From positions 131,658 through 195,657 of the forward strand of contig CAYVVD010000001.1 in assembly GCA_964454975.1 (NCBI GenBank): a stretch of DNA of 64,000 nucleotides. Direction: 5' to 3'. The notes beneath the pieces are model-generated. The model was not told the DNA's origin. It made no database searches and was given only the letters and a program-made list of their open reading frames with translations. Made by a program: the position numbers and the translations under genes. The DNA comes from an uncultured Hyphomicrobiales bacterium (GTDB lineage Bacteria > Bacteroidota > Ignavibacteria > Kapaibacteriales > UBA2268). Of this stretch, positions 26,504 through 43,725 are shown one piece after another (the first letter of the stretch is position 1; every line of letters begins with the position of its first letter).

Positions 26504-26788
26504 AAATCCATACCCTTAATCTTTATTAATAAAACATTGTACAAATTTGTTTTCTATCTGAAATCCAATTCAAGTAACATTTAAGTAACGATTTTTTGTA
26601 CGAGAAATTATCTTTGAATAATTATTTCTATAGCTATTTTAGTCACAATGATTCTTGTAATGTACAAGTTTAAATCCTTTCACACCGACAACTGCTTTTT
26701 TTAGCCTGAATTTGTAATCCATTTCTGTATGTATTTTTCACTTTTTTTTGTATTATGATTTTTTTCAGGCACTTACCTGGGTTGCCCT

Positions 26789-29700
26789 TATGAAAATCTT
26801 AGAATTTACAAAAGAGCTTAAATTCGATTGTCTATTCGAAAGCAGTCTCAACTCTATCTTATTTTTAGATGCCTATGGAAAAATTGTTGATTTAAACTCC
26901 CGGGCTGAGAAATTGTTTGGAATTAGAAGAGAGATTTGCACCGGTAAATATTACCCAAATTACCTTCCGGGTGTTGAATCCAAAACAATAGATTTAATTA
27001 ATAAGGTTGCTGAAGATGGTCCGGAAATAATAGAACACTCCTCAGGTGAAAATGGCAGCACCAGGTTCTACAGGACTGAAATAAGACCCATGCTGGACAG
27101 CAATGCTGAGTTTATTGGCGCTATTTCAATCACAAAAGATGAAACTTCAAGGCTAAGAAAACAGGAAGAAATAAAGAAGCAGAAAGATTTTACAGAATCA
27201 TTATTCCAAAACATGATATCCGGTTTTGCACTCCATGAGATTATTTCGGATGAGGAGGGCAAGCCCGTTGACTATATCTTTCTTGATATTAACAAAGCCT
27301 TTGAAGATATTACAGGACTAATAAGCGCAGATATTAAAGGTAAAAGGGTTACTGATATACTTCCGGGAACCGAAAATGACCCTGCTGATTGGATCGGGCG
27401 GTATGGAAAAATTGCCATGACCGGAAGCCGGGAAACCTTCGAAAGCTATAGCGTTAATCTGAATAAATGGTTTGTGGTGAGTGCTTATTCTCCTGAAAAA
27501 GGAAAATTTGCCACTATATTTCAGGACATTACCAAAAGGGTTGAAGCTGAAAACAAATTAAAGCGAAACGAAGAAAAATTAAGGCTTATCATAGAAAACA
27601 GTACCAATTTGTTTTACTCTCATACGGCAGAGCATGAGTTAACCTATCTGAGTCCACAGTGTATTGATTATCTCGACTGTGAACCTGAAAAGGCGATGAA
27701 ACGCTGGACGGAGTTCGCCACAGACAACCCTGTAAACAAAATTGGATTTGAAAATACTGTCCGCGCAATTGAAACCGGCGAAAGGCAGACTCCTTATGAT
27801 CTGGAATTAAATAGTGCAAAAGGCAGGAAATTCTGGGTTGAAGTAAGGGAAACCCCGGTAGTTAAGCATAACAAGACTGTTGCTATAGTAGGCTCGCTTC
27901 ATGATATTACCGAGCGAAAGAGTGCGGAGACAGCTCTAAAGCAATCTGAAGCACTTTTTAGAAAAGTTCTTGAAAATATTAGGCTTATTGGGCTGATGTT
28001 GGATGAAAACGGCAAAATTACATTTTGCAACAAATTCCTGCTTAACTTAACAGGCCATAAGTATGATGAAGTTATTGGTGAGGACTTGTTCGAAAAATTT
28101 TTACCTTTAGAAATTCAACAAGAACACAAAGAAATGTTCTTCAGTACAATCAATGATATTGAGTTGCATGTAGTACACGAAAATGAAATAACTACAAAGG
28201 ATGGTGAAAGAAAGCTAATCAAATGGTTTAATACAGAAATGCGGGATGAATCAGGAAAACTCTTTGGCATTACAAGCATAGGAGAGGATGTTACTGCAAA
28301 GAGGAAAAGCCAGGAAAGATTCAGGCTAATTACCGAAATCACAACAGATATTACTTATGAATGGGATTTAAAAACTGACAACATTTCCTGGTTTGGCGAT
28401 ATTGACGCCGCACTTGGATATTCAAAAGGAACTATTAAGCCAAACCTGGAAAGTTGGTATGATCTTATCCATCCTGATGAATTAGAATACCTGAAAAATA
28501 TATTGAACGAATTTTACAACAAAAGCAATGAGCTTTTTATCGAGTACAGGATAAGGGATAGCAAAGGCAGATGGAGGCATTGGCAGGAAAAAGGCCTGGT
28601 AATCTTGGATGAAAACGGCAAACCCGGCAAAGTACTCGGTGCCTGCCTCGATATTACTGAAAAAAGGCGAGCTGAATTAGAGCTTATCAATAGAGAAAGG
28701 CAATTCCGCTTTCTTGCAGAAAACGCATTCTCGCTAATCAGATCTTATGAGTTAGATGAAATCCTGGGATTTGCAACTAATAAATTGTTTGAAATTACTA
28801 ACGGGGAAGCATCCGTATTTGTGTGTAAATTTAATGATAATACAAACAGATGGAGTATTTTCGATATTAAATTTTCAGACGATATGGATATCCAAAGCTC
28901 TCTAAAGTTTATTGAACATGTAAAATCTATTGAAATAAGAAATAATAGGTGGATTAATGAGAAATTACTAAGTGGAAGACTTGTAGAATTTGAAGAAGAT
29001 TTAACAAAGTTAATTAAGATTTTGAAACTCCCTGAAGAACTTATTTCATCTCTCAATAATACAGATATTGAAAAAATACTCTGTTTATCCTTTACTTATA
29101 ACAATAATTTCTATGGCACAGGCTGGCTTGTTTATTCGCAAAATGTAGAAAATATAAACAAACCGTTACTTGAAGCATTTTCAGTCCAGATTTCTACTGC
29201 TCTTAACAGGGTGCACAACGAAAAACAAAGACTCGATGCAGAGACTACATTCCGCAGCCTGTTTGAATCCAGCAATGACGCAATTTTAGTGATAGATGCC
29301 GAAACATCTCTAATAGTAGATGTTAATAAAGCTGCGCTCGATTTATACGGATTCAGGCGCTCTGAGCTATTAGGGCTTAATCCCGTGATGCTGTCAGCGG
29401 AACCGGGCTCTTTCTTTTCGATTTTGGACAGCACTGATAAAATCCCACTTAACAAAGTTCGGCAGAGTATTCATATAAAAAAGAATGGCTCGAGATTTCA
29501 CGTGGAATTCAGATTCTCATTATATGAATCTTCCGGAAAGAAATATCTTGCTGTACTTGTAAGGGATATAAGTGAAAGAGAAAGATATGAAAGAGAACTA
29601 AGCCAGGCTCATAAGCAAATACAGGCTTTTGCAGAACACCTCCAGAATGCAAGAGAAGAAGACCGTAAGCTGATTTCGCAGGATTTGCATGATGAGTTAG

Positions 29701-30272
29701 GAAGTTTTCTTGCCGGTATCAACTTCAGCCTTGGATATATAATTAAAGAGGCAAAGAAAAAGATTAAAAATAATAAAATCATTGAAGAGATTGATGCTAT
29801 GAGAAAATCTGTTAAAACAGGCATGATCAAGCTGAACGACATGATTGCAAAGATCAGGCCTAATGTTCTTGAGGGACTATCTATTTCAGAGGCTGTCGAA
29901 TGGCTGGTTGAAAATTTCCGAGAGAAATCCAATGTCTCTTGCAACCTGGTTACAAATGTGGATTATATTAATTTAAGTGATAAACAAATGACTGCAATTT
30001 TCAGGATACTGCAAGAGTCCCTTACAAATGTGATTAAACACGCTAAAGCAAAAAATGTGTTGGTAAAGCTTATTCAAAAGGATGATTTCCTTATTCTGAC
30101 TGTTAAGGATAACGGGCGTGGATTTGACTCGGACAATGCTCGCAAATTCTCTTTCGGCTTAGTCGGTATAAAAGAAAGAGCGGCTTCCTGTAACGGAAAC
30201 ATCAGTATTAAATCAAAACGCGGGAAGGGTACCGAAGTAACTCTCCAGGTACCGATTGAAGAAGGTGATTAA
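26789..30272 (+). CDS. multi-PAS sensor histidine kinase with a HisKA_3-type dimerisation domain (NarX/DegS-like core)
   Basis: At least four PAS/PAC-like modules and a GAF-like region. H-box DLHDELGSFLAG is followed by HATPase_c (N, G1 DNGRGF, G2 GLVGIKER). No TM helices are seen. The ORF-track start at 26748 is TTG; the first ATG is at 26789. Confidence 0.8.
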
Positions 30273-31807
30273 CAAATATCAAGCTCGTTGATTAATGTAT
30301 GGACACCATTCTTGCGGGTTTTATCAAACAGGTTTAGCTCAAGTGCAAATATGGAACCGACTCCAACCGAACTCCGGACTGTGATATTTCCATTCATCAA
30401 TTCCATGTATTTCTTTGTTATTGTAAGACCGAGGCCTGCCCCTTCGTAGTGCCGTGCTATACCGTCGCTTCCCTGCACAAACTCTTCGAATATTTCCAGC
30501 AGTTTTTCAACAGGTATTCCGATTCCCGAGTCTTTTATCTCTACAAGGTATTTAGACTGCTCTTTGTGGTTTTTAATCCTGGTTCTGATGCTTATCTCAC
30601 CCTTATCTGTAAACTTCACTGCATTTTGAATTAAATTGGAGAAACACTTTTTGAATAGCCTTTCATCACCCAATGCAGACTTCCCTTCACATTCATTTAT
30701 TAACTTAAGCTCCAGGCCTTTATTTTCAACTTCGTATTTATAGAATTCCAATACATTATTAATTAGCTCAACCGGGTCAATTGGGCTGAGTTTTAATTTA
30801 AAAATATCAAATTCCATGTCGGATAATTCAAGAATTTTGTTTAACGTATCCATCAAACGTTTGCCGCTATTATAAATCATACTTGCCATTTCTCTGATTT
30901 CATTGCTTTTTGAATCGCTTTCTATAAGCTGTGCAAAACCAAGGATACCAACCATTGGCGTCCTTAGTTCATGGCTCATATTTGAAAAGAAGTTGCTTTT
31001 TATTCTGTTCAGGCGTTCTCTTTCTTCAAGTGTTTTTCTCTGAATTTCCAAAGTTTTAATCCTCTCGGTAATATCCATTACGATACCGGAAATAATTTCA
31101 TCATTGCCAAGTGTGATATTCGCCAGTAGACTAAGCACATCGCCGGACTTTGTTACGCAATTAATCTCTAAATTTTCGACTATTTTTTCTTCAAATATCC
31201 GTTTTAATACCTGTTCCCTTTCTATTGGGTTGGAATATGCATCAGCTATACTGAAATTCTTTGCGTCTTCCTTATTGTACCCGAACATCTTAAGCAATGC
31301 ATTATTGGCAAATATCAAATCTCCATTATAATTTGTTTTATAAACACCAATTTTTGCATTGTTTACCAGGTTTCTGAAATTATGCTCACTTTCAGAAAGC
31401 TTCTCTATAGCGTTGTCTTTTTCGAGCCTGTCAATATAGGCTTTGTATTCTCTTTGGATTACAAGAGGAAGTTTAAGGATGTTGCTTTTCAGAATTATGT
31501 CGTCAGCGCCGGCTTTCATTATCTCTACAGTCTTTTCATTGCCCAATGTACCCGTGAGTATAACAAAAGGTTTTTCCGGGCATGCTGATTTTAAATCATT
31601 TAGTGCGTCGAGGCCTGTATAACCCTGGAGCTTGTAATTTGAAAGAACCAGATCAAAGCTGTCCGTGTTCCGGAGATAATGCTTATACTCCTGCCCGGTT
31701 TTTGCCCAGAAAAGCTCGTAAATTGCATCCTCTTTTTTCAGCAGGGCTTCAACAAGCAAGTAGTCAGCCCTGCTGTCTTCGAGAAAAATTATTTTTATAT
31801 TGTACAT
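30269..31807 (-). CDS. hybrid receiver-PAS-histidine kinase; its receiver has Asn at the phospho-acceptor position
   Basis: N-terminal REC (FDLVLSNYKLQGYTG), PAS, HisKA (NMSHELRTPMVGILGF), HATPase_c (GAGLGLTI). Confidence 0.8.
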   Translation of the reverse strand: MYNIKIIFLEDSRADYLLVEALLKKEDAIYELFWAKTGQEYKHYLRNTDSFDLVLSNYKLQGYTGLDALNDLKSACPEKPFVILTGTLGNEKTVEIMKAGADDIILKSNILKLPLVIQREYKAYIDRLEKDNAIEKLSESEHNFRNLVNNAKIGVYKTNYNGDLIFANNALLKMFGYNKEDAKNFSIADAYSNPIEREQVLKRIFEEKIVENLEINCVTKSGDVLSLLANITLGNDEIISGIVMDITERIKTLEIQRKTLEERERLNRIKSNFFSNMSHELRTPMVGILGFAQLIESDSKSNEIREMASMIYNSGKRLMDTLNKILELSDMEFDIFKLKLSPIDPVELINNVLEFYKYEVENKGLELKLINECEGKSALGDERLFKKCFSNLIQNAVKFTDKGEISIRTRIKNHKEQSKYLVEIKDSGIGIPVEKLLEIFEEFVQGSDGIARHYEGAGLGLTITKKYMELMNGNITVRSSVGVGSIFALELNLFDKTRKNGVHTLINELDIC

Positions 31808-31955
31808 TTATTTGCGTTTATAATTATTCAAATCTTTCAAATGCAATTTAGTCCAGGCAGGGATATTAAAAAGTAGGTAAAGTTATGATTAGTATGTAGA
31901 GAAAATTACTACAAGTAATGGGCAGATAATCTATTGATTTTAGTTGATTTATATC

Positions 31956-32591
31956 TCAAATAGCAATGAGTTTATTGCGGAGTGCATAAAAAACAATCTC
32001 GAAGTTGGAATGTAAGTTCATTTTTTCGAAAACACGTTGTTTGTATGTATTGACAGTACTCTGACTGATTGACAAATCTTCGGAAATTTCCCTGATTGTT
32101 TTGCCCGAGGCGATCATCAGGAAAATCTGGTATTCACGTTCAGATAATAATTCATGTTGTTTTTTCCGAGAATCTGCCCCGATTTTATCGGCGATGATTG
32201 CTGCGAATCCTGGAGTGATATATTTTTTCCCCGATGCTACCTGGTAAATGGCAAATATTACATCTTCCGGGTTGGATTCCTTTGTAATATAGCCCCAGGC
32301 ACCGAGTTTGAAAGCACGCTCAGCGTATATACGTTCCGGGTGCATCGTCAGAAAAACTATTTTACAATTCAATCCGGCTGCTTTAATGTCTTTAAGCAAC
32401 TCAAGTCCATCTCTGTCAGGAAGGCTTATATCAAGAAGTGCTACATCGCAAGCGCTTTTTTTTACCCCGTCAAATACTTCGCCTCCGCTCCCTGCCTCGC
32501 CAACTACCTCTATGTCAAGCTCTGATTCTATTACCTTACGGAGCCCTTCGCGGACAAAGAAATGATCATCAGCTATAAATACTTTAATCAT
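31956..32591 (-). CDS. NarL/LuxR-family response regulator
   Basis: REC (IADDH; DVALLDISLPDRDG) plus a C-terminal LuxR HTH (LSEREYQIFLMIASGKTIREISEDLSISQSTVNTYKQRVFEK). It is the likely partner of the HisKA_3 kinase. Confidence 0.85.
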   Translation of the reverse strand: MIKVFIADDHFFVREGLRKVIESELDIEVVGEAGSGGEVFDGVKKSACDVALLDISLPDRDGLELLKDIKAAGLNCKIVFLTMHPERIYAERAFKLGAWGYITKESNPEDVIFAIYQVASGKKYITPGFAAIIADKIGADSRKKQHELLSEREYQIFLMIASGKTIREISEDLSISQSTVNTYKQRVFEKMNLHSNFEIVFYALRNKLIAI

Positions 32592-32835
32592 ATCCCGTCT
32601 CCGAAATCTTGTATAAGAACATACACAATATATTCATGTTTCACAAGAGGAAAATGAATAATGATTAATATTAAAGAAAAATCAAACATATTGATCGTGG
32701 CATTTTTTATGACATAATTATCATAAGATGTGCTATTTATATATAATTTCAAATACAATAAATTCCAATTACTAATGTAGCATAATACATGCAATAGAGT
32801 TAATAACTACTTCATTATAAAGACAGGGTCATACA

Positions 32836-35085
32836 ATGCAAAAAGTTGAATTCGAGCTTGATGAACAAGAATTGAACAATTGGCTTGAAAATCAATATAT
32901 TGATTCTAAAAGGAGTAAAAATTCAATTCTCGGCGACCTGCTCAAAGCCAGGGATATCATAAAAAAACAACAGGAAGATCTGCAAAAAACAAATAAAGAC
33001 CTTCTTGCATTGACTGTTGAACTGGAAAAGGAACTTGAGAAAAGGAAAAGTACTGAAAAGAAATTATTTGCGCACAATGAGCGCCTTGAGTTGCTGGTTG
33101 ATAAAAGGACAGCTTCATTAAAACAGTTAAACAGTGCTCTGCTTAGGCAAATTGAAGATAAAAGAGAAATTGAAAAAGACTTAATTGAAAACGAGCGCAA
33201 ATTCCGTACACTCTATGATAATTCACCTGATATGTATGTATCTGTTTCTCCCGATGACGCTTCTATTAAGCTATGCAACAAGACACTACTGAAATACACA
33301 GGCTACGAAGCTAAAGAGCTTATCGGGGAATCGGTTTTTTTTATGTATCATGAGTCATGCCTGGACGATGCAAAGGAAGCTTTCAATGAGTTTATTACTA
33401 CAGGAAAAGTAAGAGACAAAGAGCTTAAGCTAAAAAGAAAGGATGGAAGTATTATTGATGTCAGCCTGAATGTTGACTCCGTAAAAGACGAAAACGGGAA
33501 GATACTCTATTCCATGTCTTCCTGGAGGGATATTACAGAGAGATTAAAATCCGAAAAAATAATCAGGGACAATGAGAAAATATTCAAAGCAATTTTTAAA
33601 AATTCACCTTTAGGAATGGCGATTTTGGATACGTCCGGGAAACTATTGTTTGTTAATCCTGCTCTTGTAAATTTTACAGGTTACAGCGATGAGGAACTGA
33701 AATCAATGATATTTACCGAATTTACTCATCCTGAAGACATTAATAAAGATTTGGATAAGTATTTAGAATTGGTTCAAGGTAAAATAAAAAGCTACAAGAT
33801 GGAAAAAAGGTACATTAATAAGAATGGTGAGATTGTCTGGGGGAATTTGAACGTAACCGGTATAAGGGATGATAACGATGATCTGGAGTTTGTCCTGGGG
33901 ATGGCAGAGGATATTACTGAAGTAAAAGAACTTGAAGAAAGCAGAGAATCACTTCTGCATGACTTAAGGGAAAGAAACAAAGAACTGAATTGTTTGTACC
34001 AACTATCAAGGTTGACTTCAGATAGTAAGTTAGGGATTATAGAGGTTCTTAAGAAAACAACTGAAATTATTCCTCCGGCATGGAAATACCCGGAAATAAC
34101 AGAAGTAAAAATCACTTTTGAAGATGTTGAATATAAAACACCGGGATTCCGGGAAAGCAAATGGAAACTTGACAAATCATTTGCAGTAGGCTCAGAAAAC
34201 GAGATTAACATCAAGGTTGTGTACCTAAAAGAAATGCCGGCAATGTATTATGGCCCATTTTTGAAAGAAGAACAAGAACTGATATTGGCACTTGCGAGAA
34301 ACCTGTCACATTATATAGAGAGGAAAAAATACGAGGATAAAGTTCTCAGGCAAAAAGAAATACTCGAGGATTTGGTAGCGAAGCGCACATCTGAATTAAT
34401 TAGAGCAAACAAAGACCTCGAAGAATTCAGCTATTCGGTATCTCATGACCTTCGTGCCCCATTGCGTCACCTAAGCGCTTTTTCGCAAATGCTTGTAGAA
34501 AAGATCTCGGGAATTGCAGACAAGAAAGCACTCCACTATCTGGATATTATTAATAAATCTGCAACAAAGATGGACAGCTTGATTACTGCTATTCTGAATT
34601 TCTCTCGAACAGGCAGAGTAACAATAAATAAATCCCGAATAGACATGAATTCATTAATTAATGAAATAATCCGTGACTTCCAGTTAGACCTAACCGAAAG
34701 GAAAGTAAACTGGATAATCGGTGAACTGCCTGAAATTAATGGAGATACATTGCTGATAAAGCAAGCATTTGTTAACGTAATATCAAACGCAATTAAATAT
34801 ACTTCACTTGAAGAAGTTGCCGAAATAACAATTATAGGAAACTCAAACGGAGATAAAGCGACTATTTCAATTATTGACAATGGTGTAGGCTTTGCTTCCG
34901 AAAACGCAGACAATATTTTTGGAGTTTTTCAAAGGCTGCATGCAGAGGAAGAATTCAATGGGATTGGCATTGGCCTGGCCAATGTTAAGAAAATAATCAC
35001 CAGGCATGGTGGAGATATAACAGGCAAAGGCTCCCCGGGTGAGGGAGCAGAATTCACAATTACATTACCAAATGGAGAAGCTTGA
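32836..35085 (+). CDS. cytoplasmic coiled-coil/PAS sensor histidine kinase (phytochrome-type HisKA)
   Basis: N-terminal coiled coil, two PAS domains and a GAF-like region. HisKA SVSHDLRAPLRHL, HATPase_c (DNGVGF; GIGIGLANVKK). First gene of a six-gene overlapping operon. Confidence 0.8.
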   Translation: MQKVEFELDEQELNNWLENQYIDSKRSKNSILGDLLKARDIIKKQQEDLQKTNKDLLALTVELEKELEKRKSTEKKLFAHNERLELLVDKRTASLKQLNSALLRQIEDKREIEKDLIENERKFRTLYDNSPDMYVSVSPDDASIKLCNKTLLKYTGYEAKELIGESVFFMYHESCLDDAKEAFNEFITTGKVRDKELKLKRKDGSIIDVSLNVDSVKDENGKILYSMSSWRDITERLKSEKIIRDNEKIFKAIFKNSPLGMAILDTSGKLLFVNPALVNFTGYSDEELKSMIFTEFTHPEDINKDLDKYLELVQGKIKSYKMEKRYINKNGEIVWGNLNVTGIRDDNDDLEFVLGMAEDITEVKELEESRESLLHDLRERNKELNCLYQLSRLTSDSKLGIIEVLKKTTEIIPPAWKYPEITEVKITFEDVEYKTPGFRESKWKLDKSFAVGSENEINIKVVYLKEMPAMYYGPFLKEEQELILALARNLSHYIERKKYEDKVLRQKEILEDLVAKRTSELIRANKDLEEFSYSVSHDLRAPLRHLSAFSQMLVEKISGIADKKALHYLDIINKSATKMDSLITAILNFSRTGRVTINKSRIDMNSLINEIIRDFQLDLTERKVNWIIGELPEINGDTLLIKQAFVNVISNAIKYTSLEEVAEITIIGNSNGDKATISIIDNGVGFASENADNIFGVFQRLHAEEEFNGIGIGLANVKKIITRHGGDITGKGSPGEGAEFTITLPNGEA

Positions 35086-35516
35086 TGAAAGAAGATTCCT
35101 GCGTTTTGCTGGTGGATGACGATCCCGGCGATTTGGAACTGATTAAGGAGGTAATAATTGATTACTACCCGGGCGAGGATGTTTTGGCTTTCGAAGATCC
35201 CGAAGAAGCCTTCGAATACTTGCAAAACAAATGGCAAAGGAAAAACAAGAAATGGTTCCTGCTTTGTGATCTTAATATGCCGAAACTAAGCGGTGTGGAC
35301 TTAATCAAAAGACTTCGTAAGGAAGAAAAATTCAATGGAATACCTATTGTAGTGTTCAGTTCTTCGTTCGAAGAACAAGACAAAGAAGAATGCTATAATG
35401 CAGGGGCAAATTCCTATGTTGTAAAGCCCGGAATATTCCCCGATTTTAAAGAAAAGATAAAAAGTATTGGCCAATATTGGGGAGAAATTAACGAACCCCT
35501 TAAAACGGAGATATAG
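35082..35516 (+). CDS. single-domain response regulator (Rcp1-like receiver)
   Basis: REC motifs VLLVDDD; LCDLNMPKLSG; K in VVKP. 4-bp overlap with the upstream kinase. Confidence 0.8.
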   Translation: MMKEDSCVLLVDDDPGDLELIKEVIIDYYPGEDVLAFEDPEEAFEYLQNKWQRKNKKWFLLCDLNMPKLSGVDLIKRLRKEEKFNGIPIVVFSSSFEEQDKEECYNAGANSYVVKPGIFPDFKEKIKSIGQYWGEINEPLKTEI

Positions 35517-35518
35517 TA

Positions 35519-38413
35519 ATGGAAACCCAGGAAATTCCGGATAAATTACGAATCTTAAATCTTGAGGACAGCCCTGCAGACACCGAATTAATAAAGCATG
35601 CTATTGACAGCATGAGCATGGATTACGAATTAATCCGGGTTGATTCAAAGGTAAAATACATTGAGAAATGTAAGGCAGCGGAATTTGATTTAATACTTTC
35701 TGATCACAAGCTGCCGGGGTTTAATGGTATTGAAGCTCTCAAAATTGCCTTAGACCTATGCCCCGGGATACCGTTTATATTTGTATCGGGCACAATCGGA
35801 GAAGAGATTGCTATTGAGGCAATGAAACACGGCGCCACCGATTATATTCTAAAGAAAAATCTTAATAAAATACCGATTGCGATAAAAAGGGCGCTTAAGG
35901 AACTTAAAGAGAATAAAAAAAGAATATTTGCAGAAATGCAACTCGTCCACATTAATAATGTTCTAAATTCAATCAGGAATGTTAACCAGTTAATTGTAAA
36001 AGCGAAAGATAAAATTCAACTTCTTAACGAAGCCGTTAATCTGATAACTGAATACAAAGGCTATAAGCATGCTATTATTGGTTTACTTGGTGAAAATAAT
36101 GAAGTAGTCCATTATAGTTTTTCGGGGTTGGATGAGTATGTCGAAGATTTTAAAAGGGGTAGTGATATTGGACTGTCTTTGTGCTGGGAAAATACCGGAA
36201 AGTATAAAAATAGTGATATCTATTTGCCCGGCAATGAATGTGAATCATGTTGCCTCCACAGTTATTCAAATTCGGGTTACCGTTCGATATCCTCAAGACT
36301 GGAACATGAAGGCAATAACTACGGCTTTATTACAATATCCGTACCAGAAGAATTCATTGATGATGAACAGGAGCTCAGCCTTTTCAGGGAAATGAGAGGA
36401 GATATTGCCTTTGCCATTTATTCGCTTAACCTGAAGGAAGAGCAGGAAAAAGCCTTTTTAATGCTCGAAGAAAGCGAAGAGAAATACCGCAGGTTGGTCG
36501 AAAACATGATGGAGGGAGTAACTGTTGTAGATGTAAACGAGAAAATACTTTTTATTAACGAGACGGCACTGGAGATATTCGGTCATTCACGGGAAAAAAT
36601 GCTCGGCAAGCCTTTAACAGAGTTTACGCCTGAATCTGAGCACAAAATATTACAACAATCAACTAAGGAAAAATTGGAAGGCCAAACCTCGTCCTATTTG
36701 CTCAAGATTAAAAAGAAAAACGATGAAGAAAGGTATCTTAGAGTCAATTCTTCGCCTCTTTTCGAAAAAAACGGTTCTTATTACGGCTCCCTTGGTGTTT
36801 ACCACGATATAACAGAGCCCATTGAATTCCGTGCGAAACTCGAACGTAGTGAGCAAAGATTTAGGAAAATTTTTGAAGATTCTCCTAACGGAATACTAAT
36901 ATTCGATGAAGATGGCAGTTTGATTGACGTAAACAAGGAGTTTTATAACATATTGGGTATTTCACCGGACGAACCGAACGATTTTAATTCTTACAACATT
37001 TTCAATGACACAAATATCGAAGATTTGGAATTGTCCGAATTAAAGCAGGGTGAGAGTATTGTCTTCCAGTTGCATTGCAGCCCTGAATTTGACAGAAATT
37101 GTTTCAACTTAAGTAATTCGGTAAGAAACTTATACCTAAGTGTAAAAGTCACACCACTTGATATTCTCGGTGAAGGCAGGGTAGAAGCATACATGATGAT
37201 AGTGGATGATATTTCAAAACTAAAAGAAACCGAGGTTGATCTAATCCACTCCAAAGAAAGAGCAGAGCGCCTGAACCGCCTTAAATCTATTTTTCTTGCG
37301 AACATGAGCCACGAGATGCGCACGCCTATGGTTGGCATTCTCGGCTTTTCGGAAATATTGCTCAAAGAGGCACAACCGGAGGAAACCAGGGAAATCGCTG
37401 AGATAATCTACAACAGCGGCAAAAGGTTGATGGATACTCTTAATCTTGTGTTGGATTTGACAAAGATAGAATCAGACAAGCAAGAAATGAATATCGAGAT
37501 TGTTAATCCGATGTTTGTAATCATGGATGCAATCAGGCTATATGACAAATTTGCTTTAGAAAAAGGAATTGAACTTACAGCCGAAATTCAGGATGATTCA
37601 CTCCGGTGTGAACTTGATGAGAATATAATATATAAGATAGTTTATAATCTTATTAACAATGCCATTAAATTCACAGACAACGGATATGTTAAGGTTATAC
37701 TTGACAAGGAACTGCAAGGTGATGAATTATGGATGGTAATAAAAGTCGAGGATAGCGGGGTAGGCATAGATGAGGAATATATTGGTGTGATCTTTGATGA
37801 ATTCAGGCAAGTTAGTGAAGGTATAAATCGTTCATATGAAGGAACAGGCCTTGGGCTTACAATTACTAAACACCTCGTTGAAATATTGGGCGGCAATATT
37901 TCGGTTACAAGCAGGCTGGGCAAAGGCTCCACGTTTACAGTAAAATTTAAAGCTATCAACAAAGCAGAGATTAATGAACCAAAAGGTCCTGAACAAAAAG
38001 TAAAAACTAAAATCAATCTTTTGTACAAAGAGGAATCAAGATCGGATTTAAGTATCATGCTTGCTGAAGACGACGAGGTGAACAAAAAACTGATGAATAG
38101 ATACCTGGAAGAATTTGGTGATGTTACTCATGTCTATAATGGAGAGGATGCTTTGAGCCTTACTTCCGCTAATAAATACGATCTCATTATACTCGATATT
38201 AATCTTGGCAAAGGTATTGATGGCGTAGAAACTATGCTGCAAATTAAGAAACAGGGGAATAATCCGAACGCCAGGTATCTTGCTTTGACAGCATATGCGA
38301 TGAAAGGCGACAGTGAGGAATTCCTCGAAGCAGGATTTGATTATTATATTTCCAAGCCATTTTCCAGAAATGATTTTTTAGAATTGGTGAATAAACTCGC
38401 AGAGAAATCATGA
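35519..38413 (+). CDS. hybrid sensor kinase: REC-GAF-PAS-PAS-HisKA-HATPase-REC
   Basis: N-terminal REC (DLILSDHKLPGFNG), HisKA NMSHEMRTPMVGILGF, HATPase (GTGLGLTI) and C-terminal REC (DLIILDINLGKGIDG). Confidence 0.8.
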   Translation: METQEIPDKLRILNLEDSPADTELIKHAIDSMSMDYELIRVDSKVKYIEKCKAAEFDLILSDHKLPGFNGIEALKIALDLCPGIPFIFVSGTIGEEIAIEAMKHGATDYILKKNLNKIPIAIKRALKELKENKKRIFAEMQLVHINNVLNSIRNVNQLIVKAKDKIQLLNEAVNLITEYKGYKHAIIGLLGENNEVVHYSFSGLDEYVEDFKRGSDIGLSLCWENTGKYKNSDIYLPGNECESCCLHSYSNSGYRSISSRLEHEGNNYGFITISVPEEFIDDEQELSLFREMRGDIAFAIYSLNLKEEQEKAFLMLEESEEKYRRLVENMMEGVTVVDVNEKILFINETALEIFGHSREKMLGKPLTEFTPESEHKILQQSTKEKLEGQTSSYLLKIKKKNDEERYLRVNSSPLFEKNGSYYGSLGVYHDITEPIEFRAKLERSEQRFRKIFEDSPNGILIFDEDGSLIDVNKEFYNILGISPDEPNDFNSYNIFNDTNIEDLELSELKQGESIVFQLHCSPEFDRNCFNLSNSVRNLYLSVKVTPLDILGEGRVEAYMMIVDDISKLKETEVDLIHSKERAERLNRLKSIFLANMSHEMRTPMVGILGFSEILLKEAQPEETREIAEIIYNSGKRLMDTLNLVLDLTKIESDKQEMNIEIVNPMFVIMDAIRLYDKFALEKGIELTAEIQDDSLRCELDENIIYKIVYNLINNAIKFTDNGYVKVILDKELQGDELWMVIKVEDSGVGIDEEYIGVIFDEFRQVSEGINRSYEGTGLGLTITKHLVEILGGNISVTSRLGKGSTFTVKFKAINKAEINEPKGPEQKVKTKINLLYKEESRSDLSIMLAEDDEVNKKLMNRYLEEFGDVTHVYNGEDALSLTSANKYDLIILDINLGKGIDGVETMLQIKKQGNNPNARYLALTAYAMKGDSEEFLEAGFDYYISKPFSRNDFLELVNKLAEKS

Positions 38414-40017
38414 GTGAAAAATTGAAAGTATTAATTGTTGACGACCAGGAATATAACCTGCAACTATATTCTCGTATTCTTAAAGCAGAAGGATATGAAA
38501 CTGAAAAAACCACAAATGGTCTCGACGCCATTAAAATACTTGAGGCCGACAGCAGCTTTTCGATTATATTGATGGACATACAGATGTCCGGAATGGACGG
38601 TTTCGAAACAGTTGAAAGGATAAAAAAAATCCCAAAAGCCTGCGATATACCCACTATATTTATAACAGGTATTTTTGAAACAGAAGAATTCAAATTACGC
38701 GGCTTCGATATAGGAGCTTATGATTACTTAATAAAGCCGTTTGAATCAAATGTCCTTATTCGAAAGATAAAGCTTTTTACAACTCTCTATCATCAGAAAC
38801 TTGAACTCGAAAAATACGGGAATGAACTCCGGGCAAGGAATGAAGAACTTGATATTACACTGAAGTCTCTTTCAGAAGGTGTGCTCAGAACAGACCGGGA
38901 GTTTAACGTATTGATGATGAACAGCGCTGCCAAAAATATTTTCGGGATTTTGGAGAGCAAGGACAGCGGCTTTAACTTGATAAGTCTGTTTGAACAACAT
39001 CTTGAGGAGAGATCGATCGTAAAACTGAAAGAATTTATTAATAAAAATGAAACTGAGCAATTAAAGCACCTGAAATTCAACTTGTCAATTAACAACGAAA
39101 AATCAAAAATTATATCTATTAATATTAATATAATCAACACCGAAAATGAAAAAAAATCAGGTTATGTATTTATTATTAGTGATATAACCGGAAAAATTCA
39201 AATCGAGAACCAGCTTGCATTGTCCCAGAAGATGGAATCCGTAGGGCAATTAGCTGCCGGCATAGCTCATGAAATCAATACTCCGATGCAGTTTATCGGC
39301 GACAACACTTACTTCCTTAACGAAGCCTTTGAATCTATAAATAATTATTCAAATTCATTAAGAGATAGCATTAACAAGGAAAGCGACATAGAAAAAATCC
39401 GCTCTGCTGAAGCTGATCTCTGGGAAGAAAATGATATTGAATTTCTTATTGAAGAAGTACCTACTGCAATTGACAGGACGATGAAAGGGGTAGAGCGGGT
39501 ACGCGATATTGTTATGGCTATGAAAAATTTTGCACATCCTTCGGGAAAGAAGAAAATGCCTTCGAATATTAATAAGGGTATCGAAGTTACAGCTACAATA
39601 TCAAAAAATGAATGGAAATATGTTGCAGACCTTGAAACAGAGTTTGATGAAAACATGCCTGCTGTTTATTGTTCGCTCGATGAAATAAACCAGGTCGTAT
39701 TAAATATGATTATTAATGCGGTTCATGCCATTGAAGAGAAGAACGGAAAAGGCGAAAAAGGAAAAATTTCAATCAGGACAAGCCATGTAGAAAAAAGTGC
39801 TTATATTGAAATATCTGACTCCGGCAATGGAATTCAGCCGGATAAGTTATATAGAATTTTTGACCCTTTCTTTACGACAAAGGAAGTCGGAAAGGGTACA
39901 GGCCAGGGTCTTGCAATAGCTCACGATATTATAGTTAATAAGCATAGCGGCAAAATAAGGGTTGATTCTGAAGTCGGGAAAGGCACAAAATTTATAATTG
40001 AGCTTCCGGTTATTTAA
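38410..40017 (+). CDS. receiver-PAS-histidine kinase hybrid
   Basis: REC (ILMDIQMSGMDG), PAS, H-box GIAHEINTPMQFI, HATPase (G1 DSGNGI; G2 GTGQGLAIAHD). Confidence 0.75.
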   Translation: MSEKLKVLIVDDQEYNLQLYSRILKAEGYETEKTTNGLDAIKILEADSSFSIILMDIQMSGMDGFETVERIKKIPKACDIPTIFITGIFETEEFKLRGFDIGAYDYLIKPFESNVLIRKIKLFTTLYHQKLELEKYGNELRARNEELDITLKSLSEGVLRTDREFNVLMMNSAAKNIFGILESKDSGFNLISLFEQHLEERSIVKLKEFINKNETEQLKHLKFNLSINNEKSKIISININIINTENEKKSGYVFIISDITGKIQIENQLALSQKMESVGQLAAGIAHEINTPMQFIGDNTYFLNEAFESINNYSNSLRDSINKESDIEKIRSAEADLWEENDIEFLIEEVPTAIDRTMKGVERVRDIVMAMKNFAHPSGKKKMPSNINKGIEVTATISKNEWKYVADLETEFDENMPAVYCSLDEINQVVLNMIINAVHAIEEKNGKGEKGKISIRTSHVEKSAYIEISDSGNGIQPDKLYRIFDPFFTTKEVGKGTGQGLAIAHDIIVNKHSGKIRVDSEVGKGTKFIIELPVI

Positions 40018-41228
40018 TGAGCGATAAATTAAAAATACTGTTTGTTGATGACGAGAAAGATGTGCTTGACGGTTATATGCGAATGCTTTTTTCCATGCGC
40101 AAAGAATGGGATATGGAATTTGTCCTGAGTGGAAAAGAGGCATTGGAATACCTTGCTAAGCAGGAAACCGATGTTGTAGTTTCTGATATGAAAATGCCCG
40201 AAATGGACGGTACTGAACTGCTCTCGAAAATCAAAGAACATTATCCTAACATAATTAGGTTAATTCTATCAGGCCACCAGGACTTAATCAGGATTGTCAG
40301 CTCTACCAACCTTGCTCACAGGTTTTTATCCAAGCCCTGCAGTACAGAAGTATTGAAGCAAAATATCAGCAATTCCTTTCGTGTAAGAGAGTTGATTAAC
40401 AACCCTCGTCTGGTAAGGCTTATAAACGGAATCGGCGAACTCCCTGTAATCCCCGAAAACTACTTAAAGCTGGACGAACTGCTCAACAGCGAGGATATAT
40501 CTATCGCTGTTATTGCAGATTTTATTTCGGGTGACCCTGCATTAACGGCAAAAATATTACAAACCGTAAACTCCGGCTTTTTTGGACTTCCGCGAAGAAT
40601 TACAGAACTACAGGAGGCTATTGGATTTCTCGGTACTCATATTATCAAATCTCTGGTGCTCTATCTTCAGGCATTTGCTGTTAAGGACTTAGATTATGAG
40701 CAACGCAAGTTTCTACTTAAAATTGGTATGCATTCCCTGCGAGTAGCACAGATTGCCCGCTCGATTTCGCAGTCACAAAAGCTCAATAAGCAGGATTGCA
40801 ATGATGCTTTCACAGCAGGCATTCTGCATGATATAGGCAATTTAATACTATTGCGGGTTTCCGGTTACCTGGATAAAAGAGACAAAATGCTATCTGAAGG
40901 AATCCATATTCTCGATATAGAAGAACGGATAATCGGTGTTACTCACGAATCTGCCGGAGCATACCTGCTGGGAATCTGGGGTATTCCCCAGACGATAGTC
41001 GAGGCGGTTGCTTTCCACCACAAGCCGGAAAAAATTGAAGCAAAAGGATTTAATATTCTCACCGCATTGCACATTGCTAACGCTCTTGCAAATTACACTG
41101 ATGAAGAATATGATATTGAAAAGCTAAATGTTAACTGGGCTTTCTTGCGAAGGCAGGATCTTGAGAAAAATTTACAAGTGTGGTTTGAAAAGTCGCGTAA
41201 ATATTTGAAAGAAGAATCCATGTTTTAG
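40017..41228 (+). CDS. response regulator with an HDOD output domain
   Basis: REC (VVVSDMKMPEMDG) plus HDOD hallmark (AKILQTVNSGFFGLPRRI..L..AI..LG...I..LVL; GILHDIG). Confidence 0.8.
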   Translation: MSDKLKILFVDDEKDVLDGYMRMLFSMRKEWDMEFVLSGKEALEYLAKQETDVVVSDMKMPEMDGTELLSKIKEHYPNIIRLILSGHQDLIRIVSSTNLAHRFLSKPCSTEVLKQNISNSFRVRELINNPRLVRLINGIGELPVIPENYLKLDELLNSEDISIAVIADFISGDPALTAKILQTVNSGFFGLPRRITELQEAIGFLGTHIIKSLVLYLQAFAVKDLDYEQRKFLLKIGMHSLRVAQIARSISQSQKLNKQDCNDAFTAGILHDIGNLILLRVSGYLDKRDKMLSEGIHILDIEERIIGVTHESAGAYLLGIWGIPQTIVEAVAFHHKPEKIEAKGFNILTALHIANALANYTDEEYDIEKLNVNWAFLRRQDLEKNLQVWFEKSRKYLKEESMF

Positions 41229-42379
41229 TGGAATTATCAGTTATGGAAAATGTACTATTTGTTGATGATGAATACGAAGTGCTTTCTGCATTCCAGAGAA
41301 ACCTCCGAAAGCATTATAAAGTAAGCATAGCTACGAGCGGCAAAGAAGGCCTTGAACTAATGACGGAATCCAGAAAGATTGCTGTTGTTGTCTCAGACTT
41401 CAATATGCCTGAAATGAGCGGAGTTGAGTTTCTTACACTCGTGAAAGAGGCCTCTCCGGAAACAGTACGAATGCTTCTCACAGGTTTTGCAGACCTTGAC
41501 ACGGCTATGAATGCAGTAAACAAGGGGAATATTTTCCGGTTCATGACTAAACCTATATCAACAAATGATATAATACCGATTATTGATGCTGGAATTGAGC
41601 AGTACAATTTAATTAAATCAGAAAAGGAACTACTAAACAATACTCTAAAAGGAAGTATAAAAGTCCTGATTGATATTTTATCAACCACAAATCCTACAGC
41701 ATTCAGCAAATCAACCAGGATTAGGAATATTGCAAAAGGTATTGCATTAAATTTGAAAATTGAAAAGCTTTGGGAAGTCGAAATTGCTGCATTGCTTTCC
41801 CAGATTGGATGTATTGCAATTCCTGAATTTATCCTGGAAAAAGTTTACAATGGTGAATCACTTACTTCTGAGGAAAAGAACCTATATGACAAGCATCCAA
41901 ACTTAGGCCATGAACTGCTGAAAAATATACCGCGTCTTGAAGCAGTATCTGAAGCCATTGGAAAACAGAATCTTGATCCGGGAACCTATAGTTCGGAAAA
42001 TGTCCCCGGCAAAGAGATTCCTTTGCTATCCAAGATCCTGCGTGTAGCTAATGATTTTGACACTTACCTCCAAAAAGGAGATTCTGAAGTGCTTGCATTC
42101 AAGAAACTACTTTTGAACCAGGAGAAATATGAAGCCGGCTTAATCAGGGCATTGGAAAAGGACTTAACCGGGCTTGGCACTGAAAGGATGGAAGTGAAGG
42201 CAATTCCCTTCAGAAATATAAGGGTGAACATGACCTTAGCAGACAATATTACTGATTCGAAAGGTGTTATACTTCTGACAAAAGGAAACGAGATAACAGA
42301 TGTGAATTTGATGAGGCTGATTACCGCTTCTCGCGTTCGTAAAATAAACGAACCGATTAAGGTATGGGTGAAGAAATAA
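41228..42379 (+). CDS. response regulator fused to a degenerate (predicted non-catalytic) HD-GYP-like domain
   Basis: REC (VVVSDFNMPEMSG). The HD-GYP-like region has substituted catalytic positions: LLSQIG in place of LLHDIG, GKQ in place of HHE, and DPGTYS in place of DGSGYP. Confidence 0.65.
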   Translation: MELSVMENVLFVDDEYEVLSAFQRNLRKHYKVSIATSGKEGLELMTESRKIAVVVSDFNMPEMSGVEFLTLVKEASPETVRMLLTGFADLDTAMNAVNKGNIFRFMTKPISTNDIIPIIDAGIEQYNLIKSEKELLNNTLKGSIKVLIDILSTTNPTAFSKSTRIRNIAKGIALNLKIEKLWEVEIAALLSQIGCIAIPEFILEKVYNGESLTSEEKNLYDKHPNLGHELLKNIPRLEAVSEAIGKQNLDPGTYSSENVPGKEIPLLSKILRVANDFDTYLQKGDSEVLAFKKLLLNQEKYEAGLIRALEKDLTGLGTERMEVKAIPFRNIRVNMTLADNITDSKGVILLTKGNEITDVNLMRLITASRVRKINEPIKVWVKK

Positions 42380-42404
42380 TAACGAGAAAATTCAGAATAA
42401 ATTA

Positions 42405-42432
42405 AAAAGAGCGTAGTTCACGCTCTTTTTTG
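42405..42432 (+). terminator. rho-independent terminator closing the six-gene signalling operon
   Basis: aagagcgt-agttc-acgctctt stem-loop followed by TTTTT. Confidence 0.55.
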
Positions 42433-42744: not shown

Positions 42745-43725
42745 CTACCTGTCCAGAAGGATATAATTTTTAAATTCTCCCAGTTTTTTCCCAAAGAGCA
42801 ATTTCTTCTCAATAAACGTTATCAGCTTGTACTTGAACCTGTCATGCTTATGCTTCTTGCGGTTCGGGTTTGTTTCTTTTTTGGAGTAGTTCAGCCTGCC
42901 GGCCCAGTCGAACTTTTTTATTCGTTTTTGCATTACTTCCGGGTGAGCCTCCCGGAACCTTTTAACATTGCCAAGCGGACCATAGTCGAATTCAGGAGTC
43001 CTCTTTTTGTATTCTTCTTCTACCATTCTTCCATGGTGAATAGTATCAAGTGATTTTGATTTTTTCTGCATGTATTCCGGTGGGCGTACCCATCCATAAT
43101 GATAAACATAAGCTCCGCTGTCAATTACTTTAAGCTTATGAGTCCCTTTCTGCTGGCGATAGTTTTTGCCGTCAAACCCCGGAATTCTCCTGAATGACTG
43201 CGCCGATTCCCAAGAATGTATCTCGGGGTTATTGCGGATTATCCTTATTTCATTGCTGTACCAGCTGTGTCCGTCCTGGTGATGCCCGTAATCTCCCCAG
43301 AAATGCACATAACTGAATAGCATGCCTTCCACCTCTTTGTCATCGAGGTATTTCTCGCAGTTATCCCTGATTACAGGAAGGTACTTCTCATGAATAACCT
43401 CATCCGCCTGGAGGTAGAAAAGCCAGTCTCCGGTGCAGTTATCCTTTGCAATGTCTGTTTGGTGTGCGTTTTCAGTTCCCTTAGGGTATTTATCCAGGTC
43501 CCATTTCGTATGAATAATTTTGATTTTTTCTGAGTTTATGCTTAGAATTTCTTCCCCGGTGCTGTCGTCTTCATCGCAATCTCCGAGCGCCACTACAAAT
43601 TCATCCACGATAGGAAGTATGGAAAGGATAGATTCTTTTATGGGGTAGTAAAGCTTGACTGCATTTTTCACCATCGTTAAACCGCTTATCTTCATAGCCT
43701 GCAAGTATGACTGAAAAAAAAACAA
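42745..43725 (-). CDS. glycosyltransferase family 2-like protein
   Basis: N-terminal Rossmann-like GT-A region with a DxD-like YLQADEV. Basic C-terminal tail. Weak family assignment. Confidence 0.45.
   Translation of the reverse strand: MFFFQSYLQAMKISGLTMVKNAVKLYYPIKESILSILPIVDEFVVALGDCDEDDSTGEEILSINSEKIKIIHTKWDLDKYPKGTENAHQTDIAKDNCTGDWLFYLQADEVIHEKYLPVIRDNCEKYLDDKEVEGMLFSYVHFWGDYGHHQDGHSWYSNEIRIIRNNPEIHSWESAQSFRRIPGFDGKNYRQQKGTHKLKVIDSGAYVYHYGWVRPPEYMQKKSKSLDTIHHGRMVEEEYKKRTPEFDYGPLGNVKRFREAHPEVMQKRIKKFDWAGRLNYSKKETNPNRKKHKHDRFKYKLITFIEKKLLFGKKLGEFKNYILLDR

Follow-up and report, generated by a model that had tools for sequence, protein, structure and literature searches.

The window, the whole 64-kb stretch of DNA analysed here, carries a run of plus-strand signalling genes whose last member encodes a response regulator with a receiver (REC), a degenerate domain of the HD-GYP type and a small beta-rich domain. 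We call it the SQ regulator, after the Ser-Gln pair found where HD-GYP domains have the His-Asp metal ligands that give them their name. The genes and features at the locus are as follows:

32836..38413, plus strand: upstream genes of the operon, with overlapping stops and starts, namely the next three entries
32836-35085, plus strand: PAS-PAS-HK
35082-35516, plus strand: single-domain REC
35519-38413, plus strand: PAS hybrid HK-REC
38410..40017, plus strand: REC-PAS-histidine kinase, 535 aa (Pfam REC, PAS and HATPase_c)
40017..41228, plus strand: REC-HDOD response regulator, 403 aa (Pfam HDOD 155.5 bits, REC 70.9 bits)
41228..42379, plus strand: SQ regulator (REC / SQ-type HD-GYP / small beta domain), 383 codons from GTG 41228
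41252..41581, plus strand: receiver domain, residues 9-118 (Pfam Response_reg, 65.8 bits)
41561..41689, plus strand: long linker or stalk helix from REC to the HD-GYP-like domain (AF2 model and alignment)
41660..42172, plus strand: degenerate HD-GYP-type domain, residues 145-315 (Pfam, phmmer and AF2)
41798..41803, plus strand: S191-Q192, at the eponymous His-Asp metal ligands (both alignments)
41954..41995, plus strand: AIGKQNLDPGTYSS, remnant of the HHExxDGxGYP loop (alignments; loop pLDDT <50 in the AF2 model)
42188..42376, plus strand: small beta-rich domain, residues 321-383, 63 residues (alignment and AF2)
42404..42430, no strand assigned: palindromic hairpin of 12 pairs with A and T runs at its flanks (sequence)

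The stop codon of the REC-HDOD gene overlaps the GTG start of the SQ regulator, and the hairpin downstream, judging by its sequence, is likely a bidirectional terminator that closes the operon. Neighbours scanned with Pfam (26.7-45.3 kb) comprise PAS kinases, receivers, a LuxR-type regulator and the HDOD protein, with no H-NOX or FIST (NosP) domain among them, and a motif scan of all ORFs in the 64-kb window returned no GGDEF, EAL-like or canonical HHE-GYP motif that would mark an obvious partner gene.

Residues are numbered here in the 383-codon frame from GTG 41228, while both the N-termini of related proteins and the database gene call point to ATG 41243 as the likely true start, which would give a protein of 378 aa. 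The layout is that of the RpfG type, an N-terminal phospho-acceptor receiver joined to an HD-GYP-type domain. The receiver pocket consists of the acidic pair D13-D14, the phospho-acceptor D57 (codon 41396-41398), T85 and K108, each kept in 120/120 homologues (T85 as T or S), and the receiver string quoted in the preliminary description, VVVSDFNMPEMSG, lies at 41384-41422. This domain is 42-43% identical to the receiver of PDB 3KCN and has the FRFLTKP signature of the subtype found in canonical RpfG-family proteins. The AF2 model continues from it as one uninterrupted helix (model residues 107-149, block pLDDT 83-92) that carries the family motif E(K/R)ELL(D/E/N)(K/R)TL(K/R)GS, whose L, E, T, L and G positions are invariant in the family alignment, and then folds into an all-helical bundle with pLDDT >90 over most of the HD-GYP-like region.

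Homology of this bundle to the HD-GYP domain is established both by Pfam, where HD_5 (PF13487) matches residues 145-283 at 98 bits (cut-off 27.2), and by alignment to its best solved relatives, DvhD (9RBZ/9RC0, E 8.8e-7) and PmGH (4MCW). When the full-length model was compared with the PDB by Foldseek, the top 50 matches were all to receiver domains, leaving the HD-GYP relatives unranked structurally. The preliminary description had reported that the HD, HHE and GYP signatures are all replaced and had named a profile alignment to PF13487 as a check. Two independent alignments, one made with phmmer against PmGH 4MCW and DvhD 9RBZ and the other with MAFFT including 20 canonical REC-HD-GYP proteins (GHSRRV / LHDIGK / KHP / HHERFDGxGYP / ANDYD), agree on the substitutions at the places it had given.

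Residue by residue, the alignments put S191-Q192, within LSQIGC at 41795-41812, at the His-Asp pair (Ser in 120/120 homologues, Gln in 105/120) and K161 at the first His, in the HxxR helix. The first His of HHE is Q247 (Gln in 119/120), and the position of the second falls inside a two-residue deletion that no aligned sequence other than the window protein, with its database copy P0001, carries; the earlier reading of GKQ was right that HHE is replaced, but the residue aligned with the first His is Q247, not K246, and the deletion follows it. GYP is gone as well, with PGTYSS aligned to GxGYPx and a Ser (S255) at the Tyr position. Two metal ligands persist, H223 (the third His, PmGH H250; His in 100/120 homologues, Tyr or Gln in 16) and D276 (the last Asp, PmGH D305; Asp in 119/120), so that the statement that the metal ligands and GYP are lost applies to HD, the first His, HHE and GYP but not to these two residues, whose retention was already implied by the HPxxG and DxFD listed in the same description. 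In total, the domain has lost five of its seven or eight metal ligands. Further losses went unlisted: besides K161, the Lys of HDIGK is replaced by C195 (Cys in 93/120 homologues), KPG by K205-VYNG (K-x3-G) with loss of its Pro, and the whole RxY[K/R] motif is absent, G284 standing at the Arg position (Gly in 109/120). With D13, D14, D57, T85 and K108 present and five metal ligands gone, the characterization of the protein as an intact receiver fused to a pseudo-enzyme HD-GYP domain is supported.

The protein had been treated as a one-off, yet it is one member of a large family that spans many phyla and is marked by invariant motifs, an extra domain and a conserved neighbourhood. Members occur in Ignavibacteriota, Bacteroidota, Spirochaetota, Bacillota, Desulfobacterota, Acidobacteriota, Planctomycetota, Chloroflexota and Nitrospirota and share the motifs SQIGC, NIPR, Q247 and YDP; the window protein scores 203 bits with the profile of its own family vs 77 with that of canonical HD-GYP domains. 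Among the 120 closest homologues (43-55% identical), the set used for all counts of homologues given here, S191, G194, P199, P235 and Y301 are invariant (120/120). On the sequence comparison, near-invariant replacements at an overall identity of 43-55% form a pattern that is far beyond chance, and because these five residues are kept in 120/120 and Q247 and D276 in 119/120 across phyla, the pattern is not one of decay. Within its family the window protein is an outlier, with LDP for FDG, YEA for YDP and the two-residue deletion, and it lacks the FDGSGxP that many members keep, so conclusions drawn for the family may apply to it less closely.

The C-terminal beta domain, modelled at pLDDT 90 and with the consensus LRxGMILAxDIxDxxGxxLxxKGxEITDV..RL.N....I.EPIKV, has no Pfam match even at E 10 and no sequence match in the PDB by profile search. 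Kinship with the RNA polymerase beta/beta' hybrid barrel or with a decarboxylase C-terminus was considered and rejected on weak Foldseek matches (E >=0.1, TM <=0.54). A profile of the domain matched 3105 cluster representatives, and one canonical HD-GYP enzyme (P0230) carries three tandem N-terminal copies of it.

Gene order is conserved along with the protein. A REC-HDOD gene lies directly upstream of the SQ regulator at 18 of 24 assessable genomic loci, and at 16 loci the kinase core in turn directly precedes the HDOD gene, giving the order HK, REC-HDOD, SQ regulator that also occurs in Rosettibacter firmus and Desulfosoma caldarium; in the nearest relative (55% identity) both architecture and operon are unchanged. 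The receivers of the SQ regulator and the HDOD protein share 41% identity, whereas identity to the kinase's own receiver is 22%. At one Desulfovibrio locus (L018) a canonical REC-HD-GYP gene stands immediately 3' of the SQ gene.

Inactive HD-GYP regulators are already known, and the remark that such proteins are rarely documented goes too far in view of the descriptions of HnoD, PA2572, NosR and DvhD. Canonical RpfG-family proteins (TM0186, PA4781 and L030-L081) share with the window family the receiver subtype, the REC / helix / HD-GYP layout and the fold family, whereas the window family lacks five metal ligands, GYP and RxY[K/R] and has gained the C-terminal beta domain. In Shewanella oneidensis, HnoD (SO_2541) is part of the H-NOX NO network. 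Its HD has become SE and its HHE has become QLE; it does not hydrolyse c-di-GMP and inhibits another regulator, HnoB. Like the window protein it joins REC to an inactive HD-GYP domain with Ser for the HD His and Gln for the first HHE His. Proteins of the HnoD type, however, keep the HDIGK Lys where the window protein has C195, and an HnoD-like protein (L070; FSELGK, EQYERFNGSGEP, 445 aa) falls into the other profile group (108 bits with the canonical profile, 63 with that of the window family). Given this grouping and a locus with no H-NOX/NosP sensor or EAL regulator nearby, we rejected membership of the HnoD type.

DvhD of Desulfovibrio vulgaris (PDB 9RBZ/9RC0), whose role as a metal-free receptor was shown in 2026, binds c-di-GMP with a Kd of ~99 nM without metal and does not hydrolyse it with any ion tested; its stalk helix is a dimerisation element. 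It resembles the window protein in having SQ for HD, in having lost the His-His pair and in the stalk helix that precedes the domain, but DvhD is a membrane receptor of dCache-TM-PAS build rather than a response regulator, and for c-di-GMP it keeps GYP (Y621), RxYR (R650, Y652 and R653) and K582, features that are absent or variable in the window family. The equivalents of R650, Y652, R653 and Y621 in the window protein are G284, a gap or Ser, and S255; at the K582 position it has K217, a Lys shared by only 10/120 of its family. DvhD scores 132 bits with the canonical HD-GYP profile vs 55 with the window-family profile, so the shared SQ is not evidence for shared function, and membership of the DvhD type was rejected on these scores and on the missing canonical-site contacts.

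The other two are response regulators as well. PA2572 of Pseudomonas aeruginosa (REC / YN-GYP) has no detectable PDE activity, and its regulatory effects are attributed to its output domain and to protein interactions; like the window protein it has a non-canonical HD-GYP domain, but by its description it keeps GYP, differs only by YN for HD and has an orphan chemoreceptor-like protein, not an HDOD regulator, as its partner. NosR of Burkholderia pseudomallei combines REC with HG-GTP, is phosphorylated by a kinase encoded in its operon and has other c-di-GMP enzymes as its proposed targets. Its model NF053512 is the best NCBIfam match of the window protein, but at 240.3 bits against a cut-off of 400 we rejected membership, and NosR operons carry a NosP (FIST) sensor that the window locus does not.

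We favour, with moderate confidence, the reading that the SQ regulator is a phosphorylation-controlled, non-catalytic adaptor with a catalytically dead HD-GYP output, encoded by the last gene of a conserved module. Control by phosphorylation and a non-catalytic output are proposed because the receiver is intact and five metal ligands are gone. The REC-PAS kinase encoded upstream would phosphorylate D57 and would probably also act on the paralogous receiver of the HDOD protein, making the pathway a branched one. Phosphorylation may then shift the conserved stalk helix and set the pseudo-HD-GYP and C-terminal domains into a new dimer geometry, and the output would pass by protein-protein contact, not by c-di-GMP hydrolysis, as reported for HnoD and PA2572. 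Precedents for interaction-based, non-catalytic output are found in HnoD, PA2572 and NosR, and the conserved gene order, the closeness of the two receivers and the canonical REC-HD-GYP neighbour at the Desulfovibrio locus also speak for this reading. Of the two roles that the preliminary description had offered, c-di-GMP receptor or adaptor, the adaptor is thus favoured and the receptor weakened, with RxY[K/R], the GYP Tyr and the HDIGK Lys all missing.

A c-di-GMP receptor like DvhD is the main rival to an adaptor. In its broader form the pocket would bind a cyclic dinucleotide (c-di-GMP, cGAMP or pGpG) without metal, and the protein would respond to phosphorylation and messenger level in coincidence, a possibility that we regard as rather doubtful. 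Several observations speak for it: the conserved polar pocket of S191, Q192, H223, Q247 and D276, in which S191, Q247 and D276 vary hardly or not at all, exceeds what a pure adaptor would need and, at the former metal site, resembles a ligand site; L212, P199 and K205, which match c-di-GMP contact positions of DvhD (L577, P567 and the KPG Lys), are conserved; FDGSGxP persists in many family members, if not in the window protein; and DvhD, the closest solved relative, with the same SQ, binds c-di-GMP at about 100 nM without metal. Against a receptor stand the canonical contacts. RxY[K/R], to which Galperin and Chou ascribe most of the specificity for c-di-GMP and whose need is shown by mutagenesis of DvhD (R650A and Y652A/R653A impair the c-di-GMP response), is absent family-wide; the GYP Tyr, which hydrogen-bonds the ribose-phosphate ring, is not conserved in the family; and the HDIGK Lys is mostly Cys.

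Departing further from an adaptor, the domain might be an enzyme with other chemistry, using either S191-H223-D276 as a metal-independent triad or a residual mononuclear site on another phosphoester, which we consider improbable. In the phmmer alignment to PmGH, S191, H223 and D276 fall at metal-ligand positions; in the ligand scheme of the PmGH structure, the positions of S191 and D276 ligate the same metal and that of H223 is the neighbouring ligand, so the three should sit close in space. Isolated HD and HDOD domains of D. vulgaris have bis-pNPP activity even when inactive on c-di-GMP. H223, however, is too variable among the 120 homologues for a catalytic His, a variability on which we judged the Ser-His-Asp triad unlikely; no oxyanion-hole or nucleophile-elbow features are evident; DvhD, of the SQ type, lacks hydrolysis with any ion tested; and S-E proteins of the HnoD type are inactive. 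That the gene is instead a relic, a decaying phosphodiesterase whose output domain has no selected function, is highly improbable: the window copy does bear lesions beyond those of its family (the two-residue deletion after Q247, LDP and YEA), but its reading frame is intact and full length, its start overlaps the upstream stop in a sign of translational coupling, its nearest relative keeps architecture and operon, and its replacement residues and its C-terminal domain of 63 residues are both kept from phylum to phylum.

Whichever of these roles the SQ regulators serve, as far as sequences can tell the family is large, conserved, unstudied and labelled in databases as an enzyme, its public annotations being 'RpfG family c-di-GMP phosphodiesterase' or 'HD domain-containing phosphohydrolase'. 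Its members, which number in the hundreds to thousands, are thereby named for an activity whose required residues they lack, so that genome-based counts of c-di-GMP turnover enzymes are inflated in many environmental phyla. After HnoD and DvhD, it is also a third, apparently separately diverged His-to-Ser remodelling of the HD-GYP metal site, which suggests that the change from enzyme to regulator follows a preferred path. More speculatively, and as an idea that we think unlikely to hold in all its parts, the kinase, REC-HDOD and REC-SQ-HD-GYP proteins could form a widespread, undescribed device in which one kinase serves two HD-superfamily pseudo-enzymes, the metal-free SQ pocket binds a small ligand (a cyclic dinucleotide or another nucleotide) by contacts that differ from those in PmGH and DvhD, the regulator detects the coincidence of phosphorylation and ligand, and the beta domain, which genuine HD-GYP enzymes have as well, docks on c-di-GMP enzymes. 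Through its tight pairing with REC-HDOD, the family provides a concrete genetic entry point to the widespread HDOD output domain.

The ORF at 41228-42379 (+) is intact, comprising 383 codons from a GTG at 41228 that shares one base with the upstream gene's stop codon (TAG). Both the gene call in the database and the way all homologues begin favour a start at ATG 41243 (378 aa); residues are numbered here from the GTG. The protein and its downstream flank carry the following features:

Residues 9-118: receiver, Pfam Response_reg, 65.8 bits
Residues 145-283: HD_5/PF13487, Pfam, 98 bits (cut-off 27.2, E 6.6e-28)
42404-42430: palindromic hairpin, perfect 12 pairs (AAAAAGAGCGT..ACGCTCTTTTT), A and T runs on both sides

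A confident AlphaFold2 model (mean pLDDT 86.7, 38-sequence alignment) lays out the receiver, an unbroken helix of ~43 residues, a helical HD-type bundle and a C-terminal beta-rich domain, with a low-confidence loop that coincides exactly with the GYP remnant. The linker helix carries a motif, E(K/R)ELLxxTL(K/R)GS, that is almost invariant in the family alignment; the equivalent stalk of DvhD, a metal-free HD-GYP protein of D. vulgaris, is a dimerization and signal-transmitting element (PMC13090378). The receiver and the first part of this helix (41252-41660) are also 42-43% identical to PDB 3KCN (Rhodopirellula baltica, 151 aa), whose deposited name, 'adenylate cyclase homolog', looks misleading, since the entry may represent the N-terminal half of a related response regulator.

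Two independent alignments, by phmmer and MAFFT, agree on the substitutions in the HD-GYP domain. Against the active enzyme PmGH (4MCW), phmmer sets 'AAPMHDIGKVGIPDRVLLK' opposite 'IAALLSQIGCIAIPEFILEK' and 'AIEHHERWDGTGYP' opposite 'AIGKQNLDPGTYSS'. In the MAFFT alignment, 20 canonical REC-HD-GYP proteins among the genome-scan matches listed read GHSRRV / LHDIGK / KHPxxG / HHERFDGxGYP / ANDYD, where the window protein and its relatives read AFS(K/R/Q)xxR / LSQIGC / (H)Pxx / xYQxxxFDGSGxP (or worse) / LDFD. Canonical elements correspond to the window protein as follows:

First His: K161
HD: S191-Q192
Lys of HDIGK: C195
First His of HHE: Q247, then a two-residue deletion
GxGYP: PGTYS
KPG: K205-VYNG
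Third His and last Asp: retained (H223, D276)

Among the sequences aligned, the deletion is confined to the window protein and to P0001, its copy in the database. RxY[K/R], largely responsible for c-di-GMP specificity according to Galperin and Chou, is absent from the window protein, with G284 at the Arg position in the alignment comparison, and the canonical nucleotide-binding elements are lost along with the catalytic signatures. The preliminary description had reported all catalytic signatures replaced: its quoted strings translate exactly where it placed them, and both alignments confirm the substance, 'all' being slightly too strong in view of H223 and D276. Its equation of GKQ with HHE named a site that is indeed replaced, in a register off by one.

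The degeneration marks a conserved family and is not decay. A whole-protein search returned full-length proteins of ~380 aa, 43-55% identical to the window protein, from Ignavibacteriota/Kapabacteria, Bacteroidota, Spirochaetota, Bacillota and Desulfobacterota, to which the genome scan added, among the matches listed, Acidobacteriota, Planctomycetota, Chloroflexota, Nitrospirota, Actinomycetes and Chromatiales; the output half by itself likewise retrieved only REC + HD_5 proteins of the same length (98-100% coverage). Among the 120 closest homologues, conservation of the replacement residues exceeds that of the whole protein (S191, G194, P199, P235 and Y301, 120/120; Q247 and D276, 119/120; L190 and L212, 118/120; R236, 117/120; G284, 109/120; Q192, 105/120; H223, 100/120; C195, 93/120). 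All 120 keep receiver residues D13, D14, D57 and K108, with T or S at position 85. Variation concentrates in the GYP region, where FDGSG(I/L/V/F/Y)P survives in many members; the window copy stands apart as an outlier, reading LDPGTYSS there and YEA where the family has YDP. The family is named 'RpfG family c-di-GMP phosphodiesterase' or 'HD domain-containing phosphohydrolase' in databases, neither of which its sequence supports. We recognize here a large, mis-annotated, multi-phylum 'SQ' family, after the Ser-Gln at the HD dyad, with an invariant motif set. One member, P0319 (407 aa), has DN instead of DD in the receiver acidic pocket and an insertion ahead of the C-terminal domain, and may be a pseudo-receiver variant.

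Inactive HD-GYP domains are less rarely documented than the preliminary description held. HnoD of S. oneidensis (HD to SE, HHE to QLE) shows no hydrolysis and acts as an inhibitor of the EAL regulator HnoB, and ECA3548 has HT for HD and ANE for HHE (both bioRxiv 10.1101/2021.11.05.467447); NosR of B. pseudomallei, an HG-GTP protein, is phosphorylated by NosK (PMC12570481); PA2572 (YN-GYP) is without PDE activity, its output domain being active in vivo (PMC3411652); L. interrogans has several degenerate HD-GYPs (PMC12943098); and DvhD, the most relevant case here, with SQ in place of HD and MN at the His pair, binds c-di-GMP metal-free (Kd ~99 nM) without hydrolysis (PMC13090378, PDB 9RBZ/9RC0). 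Membership of the window protein in NosR was rejected, its score with the NCBIfam NosR model (240 bits) falling below the cut-off of 400. Scored with profiles of 20 canonical HD-GYP domains and of the SQ family, DvhD gives 132 and 55 bits, an HnoD-like protein (FSELGK...EQYERFNGSGEP; L070 6968-8305, Rheinheimera texasensis) 108 and 63, and the window protein 77 and 203. The HnoD-like protein and the SQ family have two substitutions in common, Ser for the His of HD and Gln for the first His of HHE, although their profile groups differ. The scores separate the lineages; a Ser in place of the HD His, and a Gln at or beside the HHE site, therefore recur in separately diverged lineages, of which the SQ family is the most remodelled.

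Six + strand genes whose stops and starts overlap, ending with the window gene, form an operon that holds three kinases and three receiver proteins:

Gene 1 (+): PAS-PAS-HK
Gene 2 (+): single-domain REC
Gene 3 (+): PAS hybrid HK-REC
Gene 4 (+): REC-PAS-HK, 535 aa
Gene 5 (+): REC-HDOD, 403 aa
Gene 6 (+): window gene, SQ regulator

The surrounding dense signalling island (26748-42379) opens with a 1174-aa multi-PAS HisKA_3 kinase (+), followed by a REC-PAS-HK and a LuxR-type regulator, both (-), ahead of the operon. The hairpin at 42404-42430 likely closes the transcription unit, as a bidirectional terminator between the operon and a convergent 326-aa ORF (42745-43725, -) with no Pfam match at E up to 1e-3.

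REC-PAS-HK, REC-HDOD and SQ regulator form a conserved cassette, present in the nearest relative (55% identity). At the 24 SQ-type loci with enough upstream sequence among the genome-scan matches listed, kinase, REC-HDOD and SQ regulator are contiguous on one strand in 16; REC-HDOD lies directly upstream with the kinase elsewhere in two, an HDOD gene lies within 2 kb on the other strand in one, the kinase is directly upstream without HDOD in two, and three have neither. Pfam-annotated contigs carry HK, REC-HDOD, SQ in Rosettibacter firmus, REC-HDOD, SQ, REC in Desulfosoma caldarium and HK + SQ only in a Spirochaetota MAG; a Syntrophomonadaceae MAG (L086 333-3906) has HK, REC-HDOD and two tandem SQ paralogs (394 and 385 aa), the first with an even more eroded GYP region (ASQFASVNKNNMPD). 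This tight pairing of the SQ family with a REC-HDOD gene is new. In a Desulfovibrio MAG (L018 6902-9150), REC-HDOD and the SQ regulator are directly followed by a canonical REC-HD-GYP (VHDIGK, HHERIDGTGYP, HRPYR), a pseudo-enzyme paired with an apparently active paralog, reminiscent of HnoD and HnoB. At many other loci (L049, L055, L058, L076 and others), REC-HDOD follows the same kinase core and the fetched locus gives no match to the SQ domain, its downstream flank being short in some (for example, L055); the SQ regulator may therefore be an addition to a more basic kinase/HDOD unit. The receivers of the window SQ and REC-HDOD regulators are 41% identical, versus 22% to the kinase's own receiver, which fits, and does not prove, a shared phosphodonor.

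The analysis shows a competent receiver, a dead metal site and loss of the canonical c-di-GMP contacts, with a new pocket and stalk under strong constraint, an added beta domain and the conserved cassette. We lean towards a scheme in which the 535-aa kinase would phosphorylate D57, and probably the HDOD regulator too, the signal would pass through the stalk helix to a dimeric pseudo-HD-GYP and beta-domain unit, and the output would be a protein–protein interaction, as for HnoD and PA2572. The main rival is a nucleotide receptor that, like DvhD, works without metal; among solved structures, DvhD is the best relative of the output domain (phmmer E 8.8e-7). With DvhD numbering re-derived from the alignment, its binding residues L577 and P567 map to conserved L212 and invariant P199, and K582 to K217 (a position that is Lys in only 10/120 family members); Y621 of GYP (S255), R650 (G284) and Y652/R653 (gap or Ser) are lost. 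In DvhD itself, the response to c-di-GMP is impaired by R650A and by Y652A/R653A (PMC13090378). The invariant polar pocket and the DvhD precedent speak for such a receptor, but with the RxYR, GYP and Lys contacts missing we regard it as rather doubtful. The preliminary description is right at its core, a phosphorylation-controlled pseudo-enzyme, and gave the receptor option too much credit. An enzyme with alternative chemistry is very unlikely, and a functionless relic is scarcely credible.

The C-terminal beta domain (residues 321-383, 63 residues) folds confidently when modelled alone (pLDDT 90), and matched no Pfam model, no PDB sequence and no convincing solved fold (best Foldseek E 0.1). 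Searched against 1.84 billion proteins, its profile found 3105 cluster representatives (E up to 1e-3), most of them SQ family members that carry it C-terminally. An unmodelled C-terminal domain common to the SQ family and genuine HD-GYP enzymes is new, and it deserves a family model of its own. In P0230 (539 aa), three tandem copies lie N-terminal to a fully canonical HD-GYP (LLHDIGK, HHERIDGSGYP), and a stand-alone protein, P0205 (156 aa), carries two copies; the small beta domain is therefore a mobile, HD-GYP-associated module and not a family-specific tail.
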